IMG/VR virus record: IMGVR_UViG_3300045988_004603
Location: 1 to 5,714 of that record
Reading direction: 5' to 3' (one strand)
Source: a virus
Length of the DNA: 5,714 bases
Shown: positions 1 through 5,714 of the stretch, one piece after another
Layout of the letters: every line of letters starts with the position of its first letter
Numbering within the stretch: the stretch's first letter is position 1
The notes under the pieces: generated by a model
Told to the model about the DNA's origin: nothing
Databases searched by the model: none
Seen by the model: the letters and a program-made list of their open reading frames with translations, nothing else
Made by a program: the position numbers and the translations under genes

Positions 1-57
1 TATCACAAAAACGATATCATCAACGAAGTTATGGAGGATAACAACAATGACTTTTGA
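1..57 (+). CDS. 3' end of the second RHH-like ORF (duplicate of 5596-5652 caused by the terminal redundancy)
   Basis: Reads YHKNDIINEVMEDNNNDF* in frame, identical to the C-terminus of ORF 5452-5652. Confidence 0.8.
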   Translation, partial: YHKNDIINEVMEDNNNDF

Positions 58-119
58 ACTTTATGCAATCAAAGACGAGCTGGCGGGCACCTTCGGAAAC
101 ATCATGGTAATCAATCCGA
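1..119. repeat. Terminal direct repeat, copy A (identical to 5596-5714); a circular-genome assembly overlap
   Basis: Base-by-base comparison shows 1-119 (tatcacaaaaacgatatc...ggtaatcaatccga) equals 5596-5714. ORFs run seamlessly across the junction. Confidence 0.97.
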
Positions 120-304
120 TCGTTAAGGAAAGAACCTTCAAGTGGATGACCCAAGAGATGGAAAAAAGCGACTGCGAGGATAAGCGGGTCTATCATCTGG
201 GGCAGTACGACACCGAAACCGGCCTGATCACACCGTGCATGCCGGAGATGGAATGGAACATCGAACAGGTCAAGAAAACCATGGAGGAAAAAAAGGATGG
301 TTAA
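47..304 (+). CDS. VP5: Gokushovirus VP5/ORF5-like small non-structural protein (proposed analogue of phiX174 protein C)
   Basis: 85-aa ORF. GGAGG at 33-37 lies 9 nt before the ATG. The N-terminal F-x-L-Y-A-I-K-D-x-x-A-G-x-F block and the later Y-H-L-G-Q-Y-D-T-E-T-G-L-I block match, from memory, the conserved pattern of gokushovirus ORF5 proteins (F/Y..D.K...F..P ... L..IG.FD..TG). The gene sits immediately upstream of VP3. Confidence 0.65.
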   Translation: MTFELYAIKDELAGTFGNIMVINPIVKERTFKWMTQEMEKSDCEDKRVYHLGQYDTETGLITPCMPEMEWNIEQVKKTMEEKKDG

Positions 305-770
305 AATCTTTACACCCTATGGAGATGAAAAACCGAAAAGAGAGCCAAACGAGCCGGGAAATATTCTGGAACCGCAGTATAAAGAGCGGTACGATGAAAA
401 CGGGAATGCCTATCTTGAACAGGTCGGAGAGATCAACACGTATGAAAAAATCCAGAGCTTCAAAGACGAAGTTGACCCAATGAACATCCTTGCAAGGTAT
501 GCAGCAGGTGACACAACGGTCATGGCGAATCCTGGTTGGTACATCGACACGAGCAAATTACCTGCAAACTATATCGAGTGGCGGAACCTGATGAACGAAC
601 AGAAAGAAAGGTTCGAAACACTGCCGCTAGAAATCCGAAACAAGTTCGACAACAACTTCGATACCTGGGCAGCAACCGCAGGAGAGCCGAAATGGCTGGA
701 AAATATGGGCATTATGACGAAAAACGATGCTACAACACAACCTGATCAGAGCAAGGAGGCAGCAGAATGA
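297..770 (+). CDS. VP3: Internal scaffolding protein VP3
   Basis: 157-aa ORF. GGAGG at 283-287 lies 9 nt before the ATG, and the start overlaps the VP5 stop (ATGGTTAA). The blocks NTYEKIQSF, DPMNILARYAAGD and ERFETLPLEIRNKFDNNF are typical of gokushovirus VP3 (Chlamydia-phage scaffold family). The gene sits directly upstream of VP1 with an ATGA overlap. Confidence 0.85.
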   Translation: MVKIFTPYGDEKPKREPNEPGNILEPQYKERYDENGNAYLEQVGEINTYEKIQSFKDEVDPMNILARYAAGDTTVMANPGWYIDTSKLPANYIEWRNLMNEQKERFETLPLEIRNKFDNNFDTWAATAGEPKWLENMGIMTKNDATTQPDQSKEAAE

Positions 771-2458
771 ACAGAAACAGTGAACAACACTACAACCAGG
801 TACCACACGCAGAAATCAGGCGAAGCAAGTTCAAAAGAGATTTTTCACTGCTGACTACGATCAACGAGGGCGATCTGGTACCGATCTACACCGACGAAGT
901 GTTGCCTGGCGACACTTTCAAAATCGATGTGAACGGCCTGGTCAGAATGGCCACTCCGCTCTATCCAGTCATGGATAATTGCAACATGGATATTTTCTTC
1001 TTCTTCGTACCGTGTCGCTTGCTCTGGAATCACTTCGTGAACATGATGGGACAGAACGACAGTTCTTTCTGGGCAGAAACAACCGAGTACACAACACCAA
1101 CAGTAGAAGATCACGGAGGAAAAGGCTGGAAAGTAGGAACACTGGCAGATTACATGGGCATTCCAACAGGAGTGCCGGGCCTGAAAGTGAACAGAATGCC
1201 GTTCCTTGCATATGCGAAGATCTGGAATGAGTGGTTCAGAGATGAAAACTTACAACAGCCCGTAGAAGAAGACAAAACAGACAAAACACTGTGGTATGAA
1301 GAAACAGAGATAGGACAGCTGGGCGGGCCAATGAGAGGTGCAAACCTACTCAAAGTTTGCAAACACAAAGACTACTTCACCAGCAGCCTACCACAGCCAC
1401 AGAAAGGCCAGGCCGTGCCGCTGCCGCTGACAGGAAATGCAACGTTAAGAGCATACACCACGCCGGAACTAACCGAAATAAAAACAGGAACAGGATTTTT
1501 CAATAGCGAGTACAACAGCGGAATTATAAATCATGCAAACATCTCATTCACAAAACAAGGAGCAAAATTCAGCCTGAACAAAAACAACAACGGAAACAAA
1601 GCGCCGAAAAGCGGCGAAGAATACCTCGAAACAATGAGCCAGGACGATGCAAATTTTCTTGACGCATGGGTCGGAACGGACTTGAGCGCAGTCAACGCAA
1701 CCACGATCAACGAGCTCCGAAACGCTATCGCAGTACAACACATCCTAGAACGTGATGCCAGAACCGGAACCAGGTACAAAGAAATCCTAAAAGGGGCCTG
1801 GGGTGTAACATCGCCAGATGCACGACTTGACAGAAGCGAATACATCGGCGGATACAGAATGCCAATCAACATCAACCAGGTCATTCAGACCAGCAGCAGC
1901 AGCCAAATCAGCCCGCAGGGCAACACAGCGGCATACAGTATGACAACCATGTCCAAACACATGTGCACCTACAGTGCAACTGAGCACGGCTATGTCCTGG
2001 GCCTATGCTGCGTACGAGTAGATCACAGCTATCAGCAAGGTCTGAGCCGGATGTGGACACGCAGCACACGGTTTTCCTACTACGACCCGATGCTAGCAAA
2101 CCTGGGAGAACAACCAGTGCTTAACCAAGAAATCTATGCACAGGGTAACAGCAAAGATACCGAGGTATTCGGCTACCAAGAAGCCTGGGCCGACTACAGG
2201 TACCGCACAAACATGGTAACATCCGAAATGCGCAGCACCTACGCACAAAGCCTGGATGCCTGGCACTATGCAGACCACTACACGAGCATGCCGACACTGT
2301 CAAGCGACTGGATCAAAGAAGGCAGCGAGAACATCGCCCGGACGCTGGCAGTTGAAGATACCAATCATTCGTATCAGTTCATCTGTAACTTTTACTTCGA
2401 TCAGACCTGGACACGTCCCATGCCGATCTACAGCGTGCCTGGCCTTGATACGATCTAA
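767..2458 (+). CDS. VP1: Major capsid protein VP1 (Microviridae F-protein family)
   Basis: 563-aa ORF. AGGAGG at 754-759 lies 7 nt before the ATG. Hallmark blocks are RRSKFKRDFSLLTTINEGDLVPIYTDEVLPGDTF, MDIFFFFVPCRLLW, KDYFTSSLPQPQKG, TINELRNAIAVQHILERDARTGTRYKEILKGAWGV, RLDRSEYIGG and FGYQEAWADYRY. Confidence 0.97.
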   Translation: MNRNSEQHYNQVPHAEIRRSKFKRDFSLLTTINEGDLVPIYTDEVLPGDTFKIDVNGLVRMATPLYPVMDNCNMDIFFFFVPCRLLWNHFVNMMGQNDSSFWAETTEYTTPTVEDHGGKGWKVGTLADYMGIPTGVPGLKVNRMPFLAYAKIWNEWFRDENLQQPVEEDKTDKTLWYEETEIGQLGGPMRGANLLKVCKHKDYFTSSLPQPQKGQAVPLPLTGNATLRAYTTPELTEIKTGTGFFNSEYNSGIINHANISFTKQGAKFSLNKNNNGNKAPKSGEEYLETMSQDDANFLDAWVGTDLSAVNATTINELRNAIAVQHILERDARTGTRYKEILKGAWGVTSPDARLDRSEYIGGYRMPININQVIQTSSSSQISPQGNTAAYSMTTMSKHMCTYSATEHGYVLGLCCVRVDHSYQQGLSRMWTRSTRFSYYDPMLANLGEQPVLNQEIYAQGNSKDTEVFGYQEAWADYRYRTNMVTSEMRSTYAQSLDAWHYADHYTSMPTLSSDWIKEGSENIARTLAVEDTNHSYQFICNFYFDQTWTRPMPIYSVPGLDTI

Positions 2459-2472
2459 GGAGGTGCAGCACA

Positions 2473-3444
2473 ATGGCAGGATGGGGAGCAATCGCTTTGC
2501 AACTGCTGCCAAGCGTAGTGGGAGCCCTAGGAAACGTTGCAAGCAGCTGGATAAACTCGCAAGGGTCAAACAGCTCTGCAATGAATCAGAACACCATGAA
2601 CACACAAACTGGGAATACCAGCATGACCGGAAACACGAGCCAGACAACCGGCACACAAGGCGCACAGGTAACGCAAGGCAGCACATCCGGGATATCTGAT
2701 ATCCTGGGAAAAGCACTGACAGGCATCACCGGGAACAACAGTCAAACAGCAGCCAACTTTAACGCCGGACAGGCAACCACGGCAAACAACCTACAAAGCG
2801 GACAATGGGCACTAGGCAACTTAATGAACTTGTGGTCAAACGCCAGGGCAAACGAGCTGACAGCACAAAGCCAGGCCTCAGCAATGGCCTTTAACAGGGA
2901 AGAAAGCCAGAAGAACCGAGACTGGCAACAGATGATGAGCAGCACAGCCTATCAAAGAGGTGTAAAAGACCTGAAAGAAGCAGGTCTCAACCCGGCACTG
3001 GCAGCCTATAATGGTTTTGGAGCAAGCTCAGGCAGCGGGGGACAGGCAGCAGTCGGAAACTCAACTTTCAGCCACGCTCAGGCATCGGCTATACCGGCAG
3101 CACACACGGCCACCATGCAAGCAATGTATGACTACGGGAACAACACAAGCCAGTTCTTGCAAAATGCGATGCAAGCGATCAACACGGCAAAGGAAACCAA
3201 AAACTGGGAAGAAGCCGGTTATATGCAGAGTATCATGCAGAATATCGGCTCAACCAGCGCAAAAACGGTTGGAAACATTGCTCAGACCGCAAACAACACC
3301 TATAACAACAAATCCTCGGAAGAAACAGCAACAGCACCGAGAATAGCCACAGAAGCAGACAAAGCCATAAACGACCTGAAGAACAAATGGAACACAGGCG
3401 GAAAAGGCAAGTTCTCAGGCAGCGGAAGCGGCAGAGGAAGGTAA
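2473..3444 (+). CDS. VP2: Minor capsid / DNA pilot protein VP2
   Basis: 323-aa ORF. AGGAGG at 2458-2463 lies 9 nt before the ATG. It has a hydrophobic N-terminus (MAGWGAIALQLLPSVVGALG), a long Q/N/T/S/G-rich low-complexity segment and the conserved block SSTAYQRGVKDLKEAGLNPALAAY seen in gokushovirus VP2. It occupies the position right after VP1. Confidence 0.9.
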   Translation: MAGWGAIALQLLPSVVGALGNVASSWINSQGSNSSAMNQNTMNTQTGNTSMTGNTSQTTGTQGAQVTQGSTSGISDILGKALTGITGNNSQTAANFNAGQATTANNLQSGQWALGNLMNLWSNARANELTAQSQASAMAFNREESQKNRDWQQMMSSTAYQRGVKDLKEAGLNPALAAYNGFGASSGSGGQAAVGNSTFSHAQASAIPAAHTATMQAMYDYGNNTSQFLQNAMQAINTAKETKNWEEAGYMQSIMQNIGSTSAKTVGNIAQTANNTYNNKSSEETATAPRIATEADKAINDLKNKWNTGGKGKFSGSGSGRGR

Positions 3445-3474
3445 TTGACAAACACACAAAGGGGGGTGTATAAT
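3445..3474 (+). promoter_or_regulatory. Consensus sigma70/sigmaA-type promoter: TTGACA (3445-3450), 18-nt spacer, TATAAT (3469-3474)
   Basis: Both hexamers are perfect matches to consensus. The promoter starts immediately after the VP2 stop codon and lies about 40 nt upstream of the next ATG (3516). The expected transcription start is near 3481. Confidence 0.75.
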
Positions 3475-3515
3475 ATGGGTGTAAGAATCGTACACTTCAA
3501 GTAGGAGGACATAAC

Positions 3516-3686
3516 ATGCGAAGTCAAATGGCAAAAAGAATGAACATCAACCTGACACAAAAACAGATCGAAGAACTAGAGTTCATCAAAAGATGCAAAC
3601 TGTATGATAAATATATCGACAGTGATATCATAAGAGATGCAATTGACGTATACGCAGAAGCACTAGGATACCAAAAAACAGCTTGA
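3516..3686 (+). CDS. 56-aa predicted ribbon-helix-helix (CopG/Arc/MetJ-like) DNA-binding protein (RHH-1)
   Basis: Hand-translated, as it is below the ORF-track length cutoff: MRSQMAKRMNINLTQKQIEELEFIKRCKLYDKYIDSDIIRDAIDVYAEALGYQKTA*. AGGAGG at 3503-3508 lies 7 nt before the ATG. The layout is a basic tail, a beta-strand-like MNINLT, then two amphipathic helices. The second helix (SDIIRDAIDVY) resembles the S-x-x-I-R-x-A-I signature of RHH helix 2. Confidence 0.65.
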   Translation: MRSQMAKRMNINLTQKQIEELEFIKRCKLYDKYIDSDIIRDAIDVYAEALGYQKTA

Positions 3687-3763
3687 GTTACGGCTACCGC
3701 CTCACTCAGGGAAGAAACATTTGTCCATAACGAGTTACGAGCAGCATCTAAATTTTGTGTCAA

Positions 3764-3800
3764 TGGGCCCCAATAACATCAAGAAGGTTATTGGGGCCCA
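3764..3800. other. Perfect 14-bp inverted repeat (hairpin) with a 9-nt loop
   Basis: TGGGCCCCAATAAC (3764-3777), loop ATCAAGAAG (3778-3786), GTTATTGGGGCCCA (3787-3800). The arms are exact reverse complements. No T-run follows on either strand. It lies 8 nt upstream of the VP4 AGGAGG. Confidence 0.9.
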
Positions 3801-3826
3801 ATCAGGGAAGGAGGCATGAAACATCT

Positions 3827-4930
3827 ATGCCATGTACGAGGCCGTTGGTTAGAACCGTCATCAACCGACAAGAAAGAGTAGTCAGCCTAAAGGCATACCT
3901 ATCAAAAACAGGCGAAAGACTGGAATACGATGCAGACCCGAAACAGCAAAAGTGGAACGAACAACGGATTAAAAGAATGCTCAAAGAGCAGAACGCTCAA
4001 CTGCTGCCATGCGGGCACTGTCCTGGATGCAAAATGGCAAATGCAGCATCCTGGGCGAACCGAATGGAAATGGAACTGCCATACCATGAAAACGCCTGGT
4101 TCCTGACACTAACCTATGACAACGAAAATGTCCCATATCGAGCGACATGGGACACACTGACAGGCGAAGTGATAACAGAAAACCTCAGTCTATGCTATGA
4201 GGACATGCAGAAGTTCTGGAAACGTCTCAGGAGATACATAAAGTACCACGAAATAGAAACAGGAAAGCTGATGTATTTCCAAGCTGGTGAATATGGCAGC
4301 CAGACACACAGACCACACTATCATGCAATCGTCTACGATCTACCGATAAAGCAAGAAGAACTGAAAATTTACAAGAAAGAAAGAGGATACACATACTATA
4401 ACTGTAAATGGCTAGAAAAAATCTGGGGTATGGGACACGTAATCCTGGCACCGGCAGAATGGCGATCAATGGCATACACAGCAAGATACACAACAAAAAA
4501 GATTTACGGAAAGGACGGTAAAAAATTTTATGAAGAACTAGGTATAATGCCGGAACAGTGCCTAATGAGCAAAAAACCAGCAATCGGAGCACAATACTAT
4601 TACGACCATGCAAAAGAAATTTACGACAAAGACCAAATCCAGCTGAAAAACGGCAGATTGGTAAAGCCACCAAGATATTTTGATAAGCTATTCGACATTG
4701 ACCACGGAGCAAAACCGCTGACAGATGAAGAAGTGCAAAAAATCGAGAATATAACAGAAAAAGCCGAATCCGAAGAACTGAAAGCAATTAAAAGAGAACG
4801 TCGCAGAATTGCTAACGACGCACTCTTTGCTCAGTTACAACAGACCGGCCAGACCATGCAAGACTATTATAGCCTGAAGGACAAAAAAATGCAAGAACGA
4901 ATGAGCAAGCTAATTCGTACCGAGGTCTAA
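3827..4930 (+). CDS. VP4: Replication initiator VP4 (HUH rolling-circle endonuclease, phiX174 A-protein analogue)
   Basis: The track ORF starts at 3755, but that N-terminal extension is encoded by the palindrome and has no RBS. ATG 3827 gives MPCTRPL..., a typical VP4 N-terminus, and follows AGGAGG at 3809-3814 with a rather long 12-nt spacing. Motifs present are CGHCPGCKMANAASWANR, FLTLTYD (RCR motif I), RPHYHAIVY (HUH, HYH at 4316-4324) and YTARYTTKK (two catalytic Tyr at 4475-4477 and 4487-4489). Identity is near certain; the start codon is less so. Confidence 0.92.
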   Translation: MPCTRPLVRTVINRQERVVSLKAYLSKTGERLEYDADPKQQKWNEQRIKRMLKEQNAQLLPCGHCPGCKMANAASWANRMEMELPYHENAWFLTLTYDNENVPYRATWDTLTGEVITENLSLCYEDMQKFWKRLRRYIKYHEIETGKLMYFQAGEYGSQTHRPHYHAIVYDLPIKQEELKIYKKERGYTYYNCKWLEKIWGMGHVILAPAEWRSMAYTARYTTKKIYGKDGKKFYEELGIMPEQCLMSKKPAIGAQYYYDHAKEIYDKDQIQLKNGRLVKPPRYFDKLFDIDHGAKPLTDEEVQKIENITEKAESEELKAIKRERRRIANDALFAQLQQTGQTMQDYYSLKDKKMQERMSKLIRTEV

Positions 4931-5072
4931 GCCATGAATAAAAAAAATTCGGAAAATGTTAAAATACATCCATAAACCGCAACGATAAATCGACAATCGG
5001 AAGCGTACAACGAATCATAAAAAGCTACAAAAGCAAATAAAAGCGCAAACCGAAATCTGACCTATAAGCTAC

Positions 5073-5114
5073 GCTGTCCTCTATTCGTCGGCCGACCACG
5101 GCCGATCGGACAGC
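5073..5114. other. Nested GC-rich imperfect hairpin in the large non-coding region
   Basis: The outer stem pairs GCTGTCC (5073-5079) with GGACAGC (5108-5114). The inner stem pairs TCGGCC (5088-5093) with GGCCGA (5100-5105) around the loop GACCAC. CGGCCGA also occurs twice (5089-5095, 5099-5105). This is the only GC-rich island in an A-rich spacer. Confidence 0.7.
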
Positions 5115-5141
5115 CAACAACGGAAACAACATCAAGAACAG

Positions 5142-5173
5142 CAAGGTGGACAAAATTCCACCTTGTTTTTTTT
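5142..5173 (+). terminator. Rho-independent (intrinsic) terminator downstream of VP4
   Basis: The stem pairs CAAGGTGGA (5142-5150) with TCCACCTTG (5157-5165) around the loop CAAAAT. A T8 run follows immediately (5166-5173). Confidence 0.85.
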
Positions 5174-5200
5174 CTCTTTTTGATAAAATGAAACTATAAA
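5172..5200 (+). promoter_or_regulatory. Weak candidate promoter for the structural operon (-35-like TTCTCT 5172-5177, -10-like TATAAA 5195-5200)
   Basis: A promoter is expected between the terminator (5173) and the first coupled ORF (5229). TATAAA is a 5/6 match, the 17-nt spacer is right, but the -35 is poor (3/6). The alternative TTGATA (5180-5185) has no properly spaced -10. Confidence 0.3.
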
Positions 5201-5228
5201 CAAAATTACCGAAAGGAGGTTGAAAACA

Positions 5229-5336
5229 ATGGTCACTTTACAGGACATCAACGCAATTTTCAGGCATCTCAAAAAAATCCTGCACATGCTGGATAAGATT
5301 TACCACACACTGGAACTCGACAAGGAGGAAGAGTAA
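5229..5336 (+). CDS. 35-aa hypothetical protein (predicted single amphipathic helix)
   Basis: Hand-translated: MVTLQDINAIFRHLKKILHMLDKIYHTLELDKEEE*. AGGAGG at 5214-5219 lies 9 nt before the ATG. Its stop overlaps the next start (TAATG), consistent with translational coupling. I recognise no family. Confidence 0.5.
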   Translation: MVTLQDINAIFRHLKKILHMLDKIYHTLELDKEEE

Positions 5337-5455
5337 TGGCATACCGCAGCACTGTTAAACCGAAGACCGACAAAAAAGTTTTCACCAACACGGCAAAGAA
5401 AACCAAAAAGATCAACGTCAACCCGAAACCGAGCCGAGGAGGAATCCGACTGTGA
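5336..5455 (+). CDS. Small basic DNA-binding/packaging protein (gokushovirus ORF8-like, phiX174 J analogue)
   Basis: Hand-translated: MAYRSTVKPKTDKKVFTNTAKKTKKINVNPKPSRGGIRL*, 39 aa with about one third K/R. The F-x-x-T-A-x-x-T block and the C-terminal RGG-I-R-L match my recollection of Chlamydia-phage/SpV4/phiMH2K ORF8-type proteins. AGGAGG at 5323-5328 lies 7 nt before the ATG. Confidence 0.75.
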   Translation: MAYRSTVKPKTDKKVFTNTAKKTKKINVNPKPSRGGIRL

Positions 5456-5652
5456 AGAGCATCAAAGAAATGACATGCTGCACACTGACAGTCAGACTGA
5501 GGTATGACACAGCAGCCGAAATCGACGATCTGGCAGAAGAACTGGGATGCAGCGTGCCGGCAACGACACGAAAAGCAATCGAATATGGGTTGAAATATCA
5601 CAAAAACGATATCATCAACGAAGTTATGGAGGATAACAACAATGACTTTTGA
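5452..5652 (+). CDS. 66-aa predicted ribbon-helix-helix (CopG-like) protein (RHH-2)
   Basis: MKSIKEMTCCTLTVRLRYDTAAEIDDLAEELGCSVPATTRKAIEYGLKYHKNDIINEVMEDNNNDF. The layout is a beta-strand TLTVRLR, a helix DTAAEIDDLAEEL, a G-x-S turn (GCS) and a helix VPATTRKAIEYGLKY, which is the RHH signature. A GTG start at 5452 overlaps the upstream stop (CTGTGA) and follows GAGGAGG (5436-5442) by 9 nt. ATG 5470 is an alternative start. The 3' end overlaps the VP5 start by 11 nt. Confidence 0.65.
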   Translation: MKSIKEMTCCTLTVRLRYDTAAEIDDLAEELGCSVPATTRKAIEYGLKYHKNDIINEVMEDNNNDF

Positions 5653-5714
5653 ACTTTATGCAATCAAAGACGAGCTGGCGGGCACCTTCGGAAACATCAT
5701 GGTAATCAATCCGA
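5596..5714. repeat. Terminal direct repeat, copy B (identical to 1-119)
   Basis: See copy A. 5596 minus 1 gives a unit genome length of 5,595 nt. Confidence 0.97.
5642..5714 (+). CDS. VP5: 5' part of VP5 (duplicate of 47-119), truncated by the window end
   Basis: ATG at 5642 equals ATG 47 plus 5,595, and the sequence is identical. Confidence 0.65.
   Translation, partial: MTFELYAIKDELAGTFGNIMVINP

Follow-up and report, generated by a model that had tools for sequence, protein, structure and literature searches.

Does the short open reading frame (ORF) between the J-like gene and the VP5 gene of a gokushovirus encode a protein, and what could such a protein do in so small a genome? The locus lies at positions 5452-5652 of the IMG/VR virus record IMGVR_UViG_3300045988_004603 (positions 1 to 5,714; this whole stretch of 5,714 nucleotides (nt) is called the window below). 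A preliminary description, made from the sequence alone, had assigned to it a ribbon-helix-helix (RHH) protein of 66 amino acids (aa), here termed RHH-2, and had pointed to another RHH candidate, RHH-1, in the same genome. We find that the ORF is a genuine gene under purifying selection, and the RHH fold of its product is well supported by structure prediction and by sequence comparison. The RHH-2 proteins make up a new sequence family without a name; their fold is very well known, and they occur in a virus family in which regulators were unexpected.

The gene and its translation signals

The ORF had been described as starting with a GTG inside CTGTGA that overlaps the J stop codon, as overlapping the VP5 start by 11 nt at its 3' end, and as embedded in the structural and packaging cluster. 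Reading the sequence confirmed the coordinates, the start and the overlap, and the neighbours are indeed those of the J-VP5-VP3-VP1 cluster. The features needed for the argument are as follows:

5336-5455, + strand: J-like gene, 39-aa basic protein ending ...NPKPSRGGIRL, phrog_10695; upstream partner of the RHH gene
5436-5442, + strand: GAGGAGG, the Shine-Dalgarno (SD) sequence that serves the RHH gene; formed by the R-G-G codons of J and placed 9 nt ahead of the GTG
5452-5455, + strand: GTGA overlap of J stop and RHH start (GTG at 5452-5454; CTGTGA context), the putative coupling junction
5452-5652, + strand: RHH-2 coding sequence, 66 aa, GTG start; a listed ORF, with dN/dS, homologs and a syntenic slot as evidence
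5628-5633, + strand: SD sequence GGAGGA for VP5, inside codons M59-E60-D61 (ATG GAG GAT) of the RHH gene
5642-5652, + strand: overlap of 11 nt between the RHH 3' end and the VP5 start

Selection was assessed in the window and seven IMG/VR genomes (eight in total, 89-95% nt identity) by the ratio of nonsynonymous to synonymous change (dN/dS); the overlaps were excluded and 183 nt were used. The ratio was 0.25 in frame (pS 0.177, pN 0.050) versus 1.15 and 1.20 in the other two frames, and the variable columns numbered 10, 6 and 27 at the three codon positions, respectively. Purifying selection of this kind means that the gene matters where it is present. The 3' end of the gene, 5596-5652, is duplicated at 1-57 through the 119-nt terminal redundancy. 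Although the ORF thus enters the redundant end in the window, relatives with other contig breakpoints carry it intact, so it is not an artefact of the junction or of the assembly.

The synonymous sites at the end of the J-like gene tell a similar story. The protein ends in ...PSRGGIRL in nearly all genomes, and the codons used for these residues vary with the occupancy of the slot between J and VP5. Of 28 occupied loci, 27 have TGA as the J stop and with it a GTGA or ATGA overlap (the remaining one is frameshifted), and a GGAGG-like SD sequence lies in the R-G-G codons in 17 of the 28 versus 0 of 16 empty-slot loci; the latter have TAA or TAG as the J stop in 16 of 16 and use GGC or GGT codons for the same amino acids, though none of these counts are phylogenetically independent. 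This signature is as expected if the slot gene is translated by coupling, and since it tracks occupancy (27/28 versus 0/16) it supports the coupling to J that had been proposed from the window alone.

There is no such support for the "acidic tail" (EVMEDNNNDF) of the preliminary description as a functional feature. All relatives, irrespective of the slot content, have an SD sequence 7-10 nt ahead of the VP5 ATG, and in the window the tail codons M59-E60-D61 are this ribosome-binding site. Because the signal is at this position in every genome, the acidic tail is largely an imprint of overlapping signals.

We note two irregular copies. In one relative (L012/L022, ~4069-4267) the RHH gene is frameshifted and the J tail carries a G-run error, and in the database entry P0025 the N-terminus is aberrant, as if read in another frame. 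Errors of assembly or sequencing are the probable cause of both, although decay of the copies could also explain them. These two cases and the absence of the gene from many relatives are what could be said for a chance or decaying ORF held open by neighbouring signals, an idea that is barely credible and is already contradicted by the selection analysis across 183 non-overlapping nt, as well as by conservation of the protein to 43% identity (~28% at the superfamily level, with the fold pattern retained), by a superfamily of at least 174 protein clusters and by the translation-start signature at synonymous sites.

The fold of the 66-aa protein

The RHH signature had been read from the sequence as a strand, a helix, a G-C-S turn and a second helix. 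AlphaFold, run on the monomer with an alignment of 28 sequences, arrives at the same elements: the five models have predicted local distance difference test (pLDDT) values of 85-87, and the model used here (mean pLDDT 87.3) shows residues 7-17 as extended, helix A at 18-31, the loop G32-C33-S34 and helix B at 35-60, i.e. an RHH topology. On the DNA the elements are located as follows:

5479-5502, + strand: codons of the predicted beta-ribbon strand, residues 10-17 (CTLTVRLR); extended in the AlphaFold model, pLDDT 75-88
5503-5544, + strand: codons of helix A, residues 18-31, YDTAAEIDDLAEEL; AlphaFold helix, pLDDT > 90
5545-5553, + strand: codons of the G32-C33-S34 loop (the G-x-S/T/N turn of RHH proteins); AlphaFold loop, S34 invariant and G32 nearly so
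5554-5631, + strand: codons of helix B and its extension, residues 35-60; AlphaFold helix

When the model was compared with PDB structures using Foldseek, nearly all of the top 30 matches were RHH proteins, with probabilities up to 0.98; CopA_SO, Arc, ORF56, CopG, PutA, AmrZ, NikA, MazE-mt1, TacA, CdbA and SvtR are among them. The best structural match in BFVD is also an RHH protein, i.e. the CopG-domain protein of Microvirus mar32. At the level of sequence, the profile of the whole superfamily detects ORF56 of plasmid pRN1 among the PDB entries (E 5.5e-4, residues 8-52), followed by AvtR, TraM and CopA_SO; the profile of the close homologs gave only noise in the same PDB sequence search.

The residue pattern is in accordance with the predicted fold. 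In the modelled strand the polar residues T11, T13 and R15 would face outward and the hydrophobic L12, V14 and L16 inward, and this alternation is seen in all subfamilies (e.g. IFSVRC, DFHIRI, VNVYL, ISVKL). Arc and Mnt share the x-h-x-h-R-h pattern that results. Invariant positions in family A/A', to which RHH-2 belongs, are R15 in the strand, S34 as the helix cap and R40; H50, I54 and E57 are conserved there as well. G46 is the only residue invariant across the whole superfamily.

Pfam points in the same direction. The RHH_1 model (PF01402) is matched by 22 of the 24 close homologs, with residues 12-45 aligned on profile positions 2-35 of 39, and its gathering cut-off of 20.5 bits is passed by three of ten homologs examined individually (P0005 with 23.3, P0007 with 22.4 and P0015 with 22.1 bits). 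The scores of the distant homologs are 14 bits or lower.

Several observations weigh against the RHH assignment and have to be set beside the above. The window's own protein has nothing above threshold in the Pfam, NCBIfam and PHROG scans. The Foldseek E-values are all individually weak (0.02-1 overall, 0.1-1 for the PDB matches), which is expected for a domain of ~45 residues and is not proof. In distant homologs, weak matches to helix-turn-helix (HTH) families are found over the "LAEELGxS" segment as well, and as this motif is common to RHH and HTH folds, a structural test was needed. Finally, a first AlphaFold run on 24 near-identical sequences reached a pLDDT of 61.7 only and showed a helical N-terminus of low confidence (residues 4-17, pLDDT < 50); that model was set aside for the run on the more diverse alignment, and its N-terminal helix was deemed spurious.

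These observations lead to the question whether the protein could be a small HTH protein, with "DDLAEELGCS" as helix 2 plus turn and the N-terminus as helix 1. The sub-threshold matches over residues 20-45 (TetR_N, HTH_24, Sigma70_r4_2, HTH_11, IF2_N) and the helical residues 4-17 of the first run would fit such an arrangement, but that helix had the low confidence just mentioned, and with the diverse alignment the N-terminus became extended while the confidence rose to 87. Moreover, the N-terminal segment is rich in beta-branched residues and has an i, i+2 hydrophobic periodicity in all subfamilies, the structural matches are RHH and not HTH proteins, RHH_1 alone reaches its curated cut-off, and the profile match to ORF56 covers the strand and both helices. 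We therefore consider the HTH alternative unlikely, and clearly so.

The slot between J and VP5

How widespread is the gene? A word-indexed search found 24 full-length homolog clusters with 82-89% identity, in addition to P0025, and a second indexed search brought the distant members to eleven (43-60% identity). The preliminary description had named lack of conservation in relatives as something that would speak against the gene; here, homologs of 43-60% identity occupy the same slot. When 1.84 billion representative proteins were searched exhaustively with a hidden Markov model, only two more small clusters came up, P0026 and P0028, both encoded between the J-like gene and VP5 in gokushovirus contigs. 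The long matches of this search (P0027, P0029, P0030 and P0033) were rejected as homologs; they are tandem-repeat proteins that score on "DDLA..LG"-like motifs.

With a combined profile the superfamily comprises at least 174 clusters. All 120 clusters listed are on contigs of 7.7 kb or less, and none carries a name beyond "hypothetical protein". No small non-microviral homolog of RHH-2 was found among the 1.84 billion representative proteins, no bacterial relative or prophage copy in 185,579 species genomes, and a tblastn search with the 66-aa protein gave no match in 50,697 GenBank phage records. The GenBank phage records do contain two family-B copies, with no annotated feature under either, and the RHH-2 gene is likewise unannotated in public records.

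The slot was surveyed in 44 VP5-anchored IMG/VR loci, one of which was too short to score. In the 43 scored loci it holds a gene of 54-74 aa in 24 cases, a spacer of just 12-15 nt in 15 and a gap of 78-97 nt in four. The 54-74-aa proteins fall into several families that are unrelated by eye, yet all have the strand-helix-loop-helix pattern and an "...IK.GLK(H/N)..." motif. In profile-profile comparisons by hhalign, family A, that of the window, matched families B, C and E with probabilities of 96.8, 83.6 and 83.7%, respectively.

Three of the four short gaps encode a hydrophobic peptide of 27-30 aa. Such slot peptides are located at L002 1841-1933, L035 1406-1498, L037 1416-1499 and L039 ~372-455 (an example is MNEVQLIIKIVTLSLLIADLYMIVKMIRRK), and in L002 and L035 they start at the same GTGA overlap. 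They could be membrane or lysis peptides.

In a neighbour-joining tree of VP5, which is indicative as it uses ~85 residues only, the grouping of the RHH subfamilies agrees with the VP5 clades, and the empty slots are essentially confined to one clade. Divergence is not even: between the family-B genomes and the window, VP5 is ~68% identical and the RHH protein only ~28%. The simplest reading of these sequence comparisons is an old resident gene that diverges fast and was lost in one lineage, not a hopping cassette. To judge from the searches above, this superfamily of RHH proteins is found only in the J-VP5 slot of one group of gut gokushoviruses. The sister clade without the gene thrives with an otherwise identical architecture, which shows that the gene is dispensable for replication, packaging and assembly as such; in other words, the slot gene is dispensable for making virions.

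The genome around the slot is of the usual gokushovirus type. The window represents one complete circular genome, 5595 nt long, with 119 nt of terminal redundancy (1-119 = 5596-5714), and its nearest GenBank relatives are pig and human gut gokushoviruses with ~72% nt identity. Gene assignments are based on Pfam and PHROG scans of the window proteins. Besides the genes listed above, it contains:

47-304, + strand: VP5 (redundant copy; start also at 5642), Pfam Phage_ORF5
297-770: VP3 scaffold protein, Chlamy_scaf
767-2458: VP1 capsid protein, Phage_F, E 1e-157
2473-3444: VP2 pilot protein
3516-3686: RHH-1 candidate, 56 aa
~3827-4930: VP4, Rep protein, REP_ORF2-G2P, with an HUH-type domain
5229-5336: ORF of 35 aa (MVTLQDINAIFRHLKKILHMLDKIYHTLELDKEEE) with a good SD sequence

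The 35-aa ORF at 5229-5336 is kept in every relative examined and has no family assignment; in Dulem virus 202 (L004) it is placed between the J-like gene and VP5 and not before J. The J-like homolog of the same virus is annotated as "DNA binding protein". The RHH-2 gene, within the J-VP5-VP3-VP1 cluster, starts 522 nt downstream of the VP4 end, past a strong terminator at 5140-5175. This intrinsic terminator, an 11-bp stem with a T run between VP4 and the late cluster, follows a conserved nested palindrome at 5073-5114 (GCTGTCC...TCGGCCG-ACCA-CGGCCGA...GGACAGC). Downstream of it there is no good sigma-70 promoter, so the late genes may depend on read-through of the terminator.

A hint on the host range of the wider group comes from L060 (CAZYSS010000055.1, a metagenome-assembled genome of Oscillospiraceae). 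At 2454-9083 it carries a distant microvirus, whose VP1 is 45% identical and which has a Rep domain; this virus adjoins a tyrosine integrase, with bacterial genes (MacB/FtsX, HlyD, RadA-like) on its flanks. This appears to be an integrated microvirus prophage in a Firmicute. Taken with the SD-rich genes and the sigma-70-type promoter of the window, it suggests Firmicutes as hosts.

Candidate roles and known systems

What could the protein do? The reading that we favour, although we regard it as having about an even chance of being right, is that RHH-2 is a regulator, a dimer that binds DNA in a sequence-specific manner and is made alongside the late packaging proteins. Translation would be coupled to the J-like gene through the SD sequence in the last codons of J and the GTG that overlaps its TGA. 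By analogy with other RHH proteins, RHH-2 would pair into a dimer in which the two strands (T11, T13, R15) make up a ribbon for reading the major groove of double-stranded DNA, while the S34 helix cap and R40 would hold the DNA backbone. Such a protein would most probably be a repressor, produced together with the late packaging proteins and acting on the replicative form of the phage or on a host promoter. The invariance of R15, S34 and R40 and the Arc-like strand pattern fit a DNA-reading ribbon. In the PHROG scans there are weak matches to transcriptional-repressor families, i.e. phrog_876 in 19 of 28 members and the Arc-like phrog_582 in 9 of 28 (best E 8.3e-4).

A regulator needs a target, and here the evidence is not in its favour. 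No RHH-2-specific operator was found among the GTGTA sites and the hairpins 3764-3800 and 5073-5114, as these are present equally in genomes without the gene. The GTGTA sites are best seen in the early promoter region. A perfect sigma-70 promoter, TTGACA-18-TATAAT (12/12 matches), lies at 3445-3474 directly after the VP2 stop; it drives RHH-1 (3516-3686) and then VP4, in an arrangement like that of copG-repB. GTGTA half-sites overlap the -10 element (GGTGTATAAT), a GTGTA-N7-TACAC arrangement is found at 3479-3495, and GGTGTA occurs 7 times in the window versus 1.6 expected. The promoter region and its GTGTA sites are conserved in relatives with or without the slot gene, and the sites are for this reason assigned provisionally to RHH-1 and not to RHH-2.

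RHH-1 itself has homologs in all the full genomes of the closer clade that were examined, including L001 and L002, which lack the slot gene. These homologs have the classical "KRxNINLT ... SDIIRDAI" pattern, and two of seven match RHH_1 weakly. The two RHH candidates had been called paralog-like. They are ~1.8 kb apart and not adjacent, and when RHH-1 was compared pairwise with RHH-2 there was no BLASTP alignment and the hhalign profile-profile probability was 0.8%, so this designation has to be dropped.

The second structure considered, at 3764-3800 just upstream of the VP4 ribosome-binding site, is a perfect inverted repeat of 14 nt, TGGGCCCCAATAAC-N9-GTTATTGGGGCCCA. It is kept across the clade with compensatory changes (CCCCTATAAC/GTTATAGGGG in L002; a different sequence that still pairs in L004), which suggests a functional stem-loop; an origin, a priming signal and an mRNA element are candidates. 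As a provisional view from the sequence comparisons, the GTGTA sites and this hairpin belong more naturally to RHH-1, which is present universally, or to replication.

The only candidate site specific to window-type RHH genomes is a TCAGGGAAG repeat, two short copies of which may be due to chance. The copies, at 3705-3713 and 3801-3809, are 96 nt apart and flank the hairpin, the second one overlapping the VP4 ribosome-binding site. The repeat is present in the window clade and degenerate in L013; L001/L002 have unrelated sequence where the first copy would be, and a degenerate second copy.

The region 4931-5140 was compared with L001, L002, L006, L009, L011, L012 and L013. Many relatives have a second promoter after VP4 (CTTGACAAGTGTATGTTTTAGGTGTATAAT, with GTGTA motifs) and one or two small ORFs there. 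The window is without this module and has ~110 nt of unrelated sequence in its place, i.e. this is a second variable region of the genome. No co-variation of the module with the RHH-2 gene was seen in this comparison.

The preliminary description had put forward an Arc/Mnt-like switch, an accessory for packaging and an antitoxin-like decoy. Apart from the favoured regulator, we considered three roles. The first is that of a replication or packaging accessory, in which an RHH dimer would bind near the origin or at a packaging hairpin and would assist or restrain the VP4 HUH endonuclease or the VP5 switch to single-strand synthesis. In relaxosomes, RHH proteins (TraY, NikA, TraM and MobC-type) aid HUH relaxases in a comparable manner. 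The gene lies between, and is coupled to, a J-like DNA-binding gene and VP5, VP4 has a Rep/G2P HUH-type domain, and the conserved hairpins 5073-5114 and 3764-3800 are possible targets. There is also a weak likeness to relaxosome RHH proteins (NikA 2ba3 in Foldseek, NikA-like PF21983, MobA NF041264 in 4 members, TraM 4qpo with E 0.16), but it is no better than the likeness to any other RHH protein. The sister clade has the same hairpins, J, VP5 and VP4 with a 12-nt spacer where the gene would be, so the factor is not required, and this argues against an essential packaging role. We hold an accessory of this kind to be a minor possibility, perhaps one chance in several.

Of similarly low probability is a circuit of two RHH proteins. 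In it, RHH-1 would autoregulate the early rep promoter as CopG does, and the late RHH protein, produced along with the J-like protein and VP5, would act back on transcription of the phage or of the host and so set the time at which replication gives way to packaging; another option for the late protein is an anti-defence factor peculiar to microviruses. Gene expression in Microviridae is thought to be constitutive. If true, an RHH circuit would be the first phage-encoded transcriptional timing device in this family.

Somewhat less probable again is an orphan antitoxin-like anti-defence protein. Its RHH domain and conserved C-terminal helix would disarm a toxin or abortive-infection effector of the host, or would repress the promoter of a host toxin-antitoxin or defence system. 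The PDB neighbours include RHH antitoxins (CopA_SO 6iya and 7etr, MazE-mt1, TacA1, Rv0298 and MazE6), conservation extends past the RHH core at G46, H50, I54 and E57, and the gene is dispensable and fast-evolving (family B at ~28% versus ~68% identity for VP5). NCBIfam adds weak matches to RelB-like models in 9 of 28 members and to BrnA models, but these have E-values of 0.018 or worse, far below the cut-offs. Against such a role stands the absence of a toxin gene from the 5.6-kb genome, all other genes of which are microviral (VP1-VP5, the J-like gene, the 35-aa ORF and RHH-1). Outside three microviral clusters there was no small homolog among the 1.84 billion representative proteins, nor any relative in the 185,579 species genomes, hence no bacterial antitoxin family that would be mimicked. 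In addition, the tail is short, with acidic residues that the VP5 ribosome-binding site explains, and the subfamilies track the VP5 clades, unlike mobile anti-defence cargo.

In microviruses such as phiX174, expression is set by the strength of promoters and terminators, and such phages are not known to have DNA-binding regulators of their own. A survey of microvirus diversity from 2022 listed as accessory genes only methyltransferases, lysis peptidases and small unassigned peptides (PMC9239249). Our literature searches for RHH proteins or repressors in connection with microviruses or gokushoviruses returned nothing relevant. The surprise is moderate, as the fold is common, small RHH regulators are ordinary in phages, and at least one other microvirus protein had already been labelled RHH automatically. 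As a family that is readily synthesised, RHH-2 gives a concrete means of testing whether phages of 5.6 kb regulate themselves or their hosts, and the natural empty-slot relatives, such as L001 and L032 with TAA and a 12-nt spacer between J and VP5, provide a template for the design of deletions.

The known systems resemble RHH-2 to different degrees. The automatically labelled protein is that of Microvirus mar32 (UniProt A0A8F5ML28), like RHH-2 an RHH protein of a microvirus (BFVD E 0.023, probability 1.00, target template modelling (TM) score 0.83, 28% identity); unlike RHH-2 it has 47 aa, is without the C-terminal extension and was missed by both HMMER searches.

The RHH antitoxins (CopA_SO/ParD, RelB, MazE-mt1, TacA) share with RHH-2 the succession of an RHH domain and a short C-terminal helix, and the DNA-binding domain of CopA_SO (6iya) is the best Foldseek match, with 31% identity over 48 columns. 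RHH-2, however, has no cognate toxin gene, and no bacterial homologs were found; its C-terminal part falls short of the usual length of a toxin-binding domain, and overlapping translation signals account for some of its sequence.

Arc and Mnt of the immI region of Salmonella phage P22, both repressors, are phage-encoded RHH proteins as well. Arc structures rank 3-6 in the Foldseek search (probabilities 0.90-0.97), with a root-mean-square deviation (rmsd) of ~1.5 A between the RHH-2 model and Arc, and the Arc strand QFNLRW matches TLTVRL here in the order polar-hydrophobic-polar-hydrophobic-Arg-hydrophobic. In contrast to Arc, RHH-2 has no Pfam Arc match and reaches phrog_582 only weakly. The locus differs too: it has neither a divergent promoter pair nor an antirepressor gene, the two RHH candidates of the phage are neither related nor adjacent, and the genome is that of a 5.6-kb single-stranded DNA microvirus with no sign of lysogeny genes.

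This leaves CopG (RepA, pMV158) and ORF56 (Sulfolobus pRN1). Both are encoded directly upstream of rep, are co-transcribed with it and repress that promoter, i.e. they are minimal copy-control repressors of rolling-circle or Rep replicons. RHH-2 differs from them by its place in the structural and packaging cluster, the rep-proximal position being held by RHH-1, by a helix B extension ~20 residues longer and by a sequence that is itself below the Pfam cut-off. On the other hand, CopG and ORF56 have the same small strand-helix-G-x-S loop-helix layout. The CopG structures 1ea4 and 1b01 superimpose on the RHH-2 model with a Foldseek rmsd of ~1.5 A and target TM scores of 0.75-0.79, and in this comparison ORF56 is the only PDB protein found by the sequence profile, the weaker AvtR, TraM and CopA_SO following behind. 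Like RHH-2, these proteins belong to small replicons that replicate with a Rep-type initiator.

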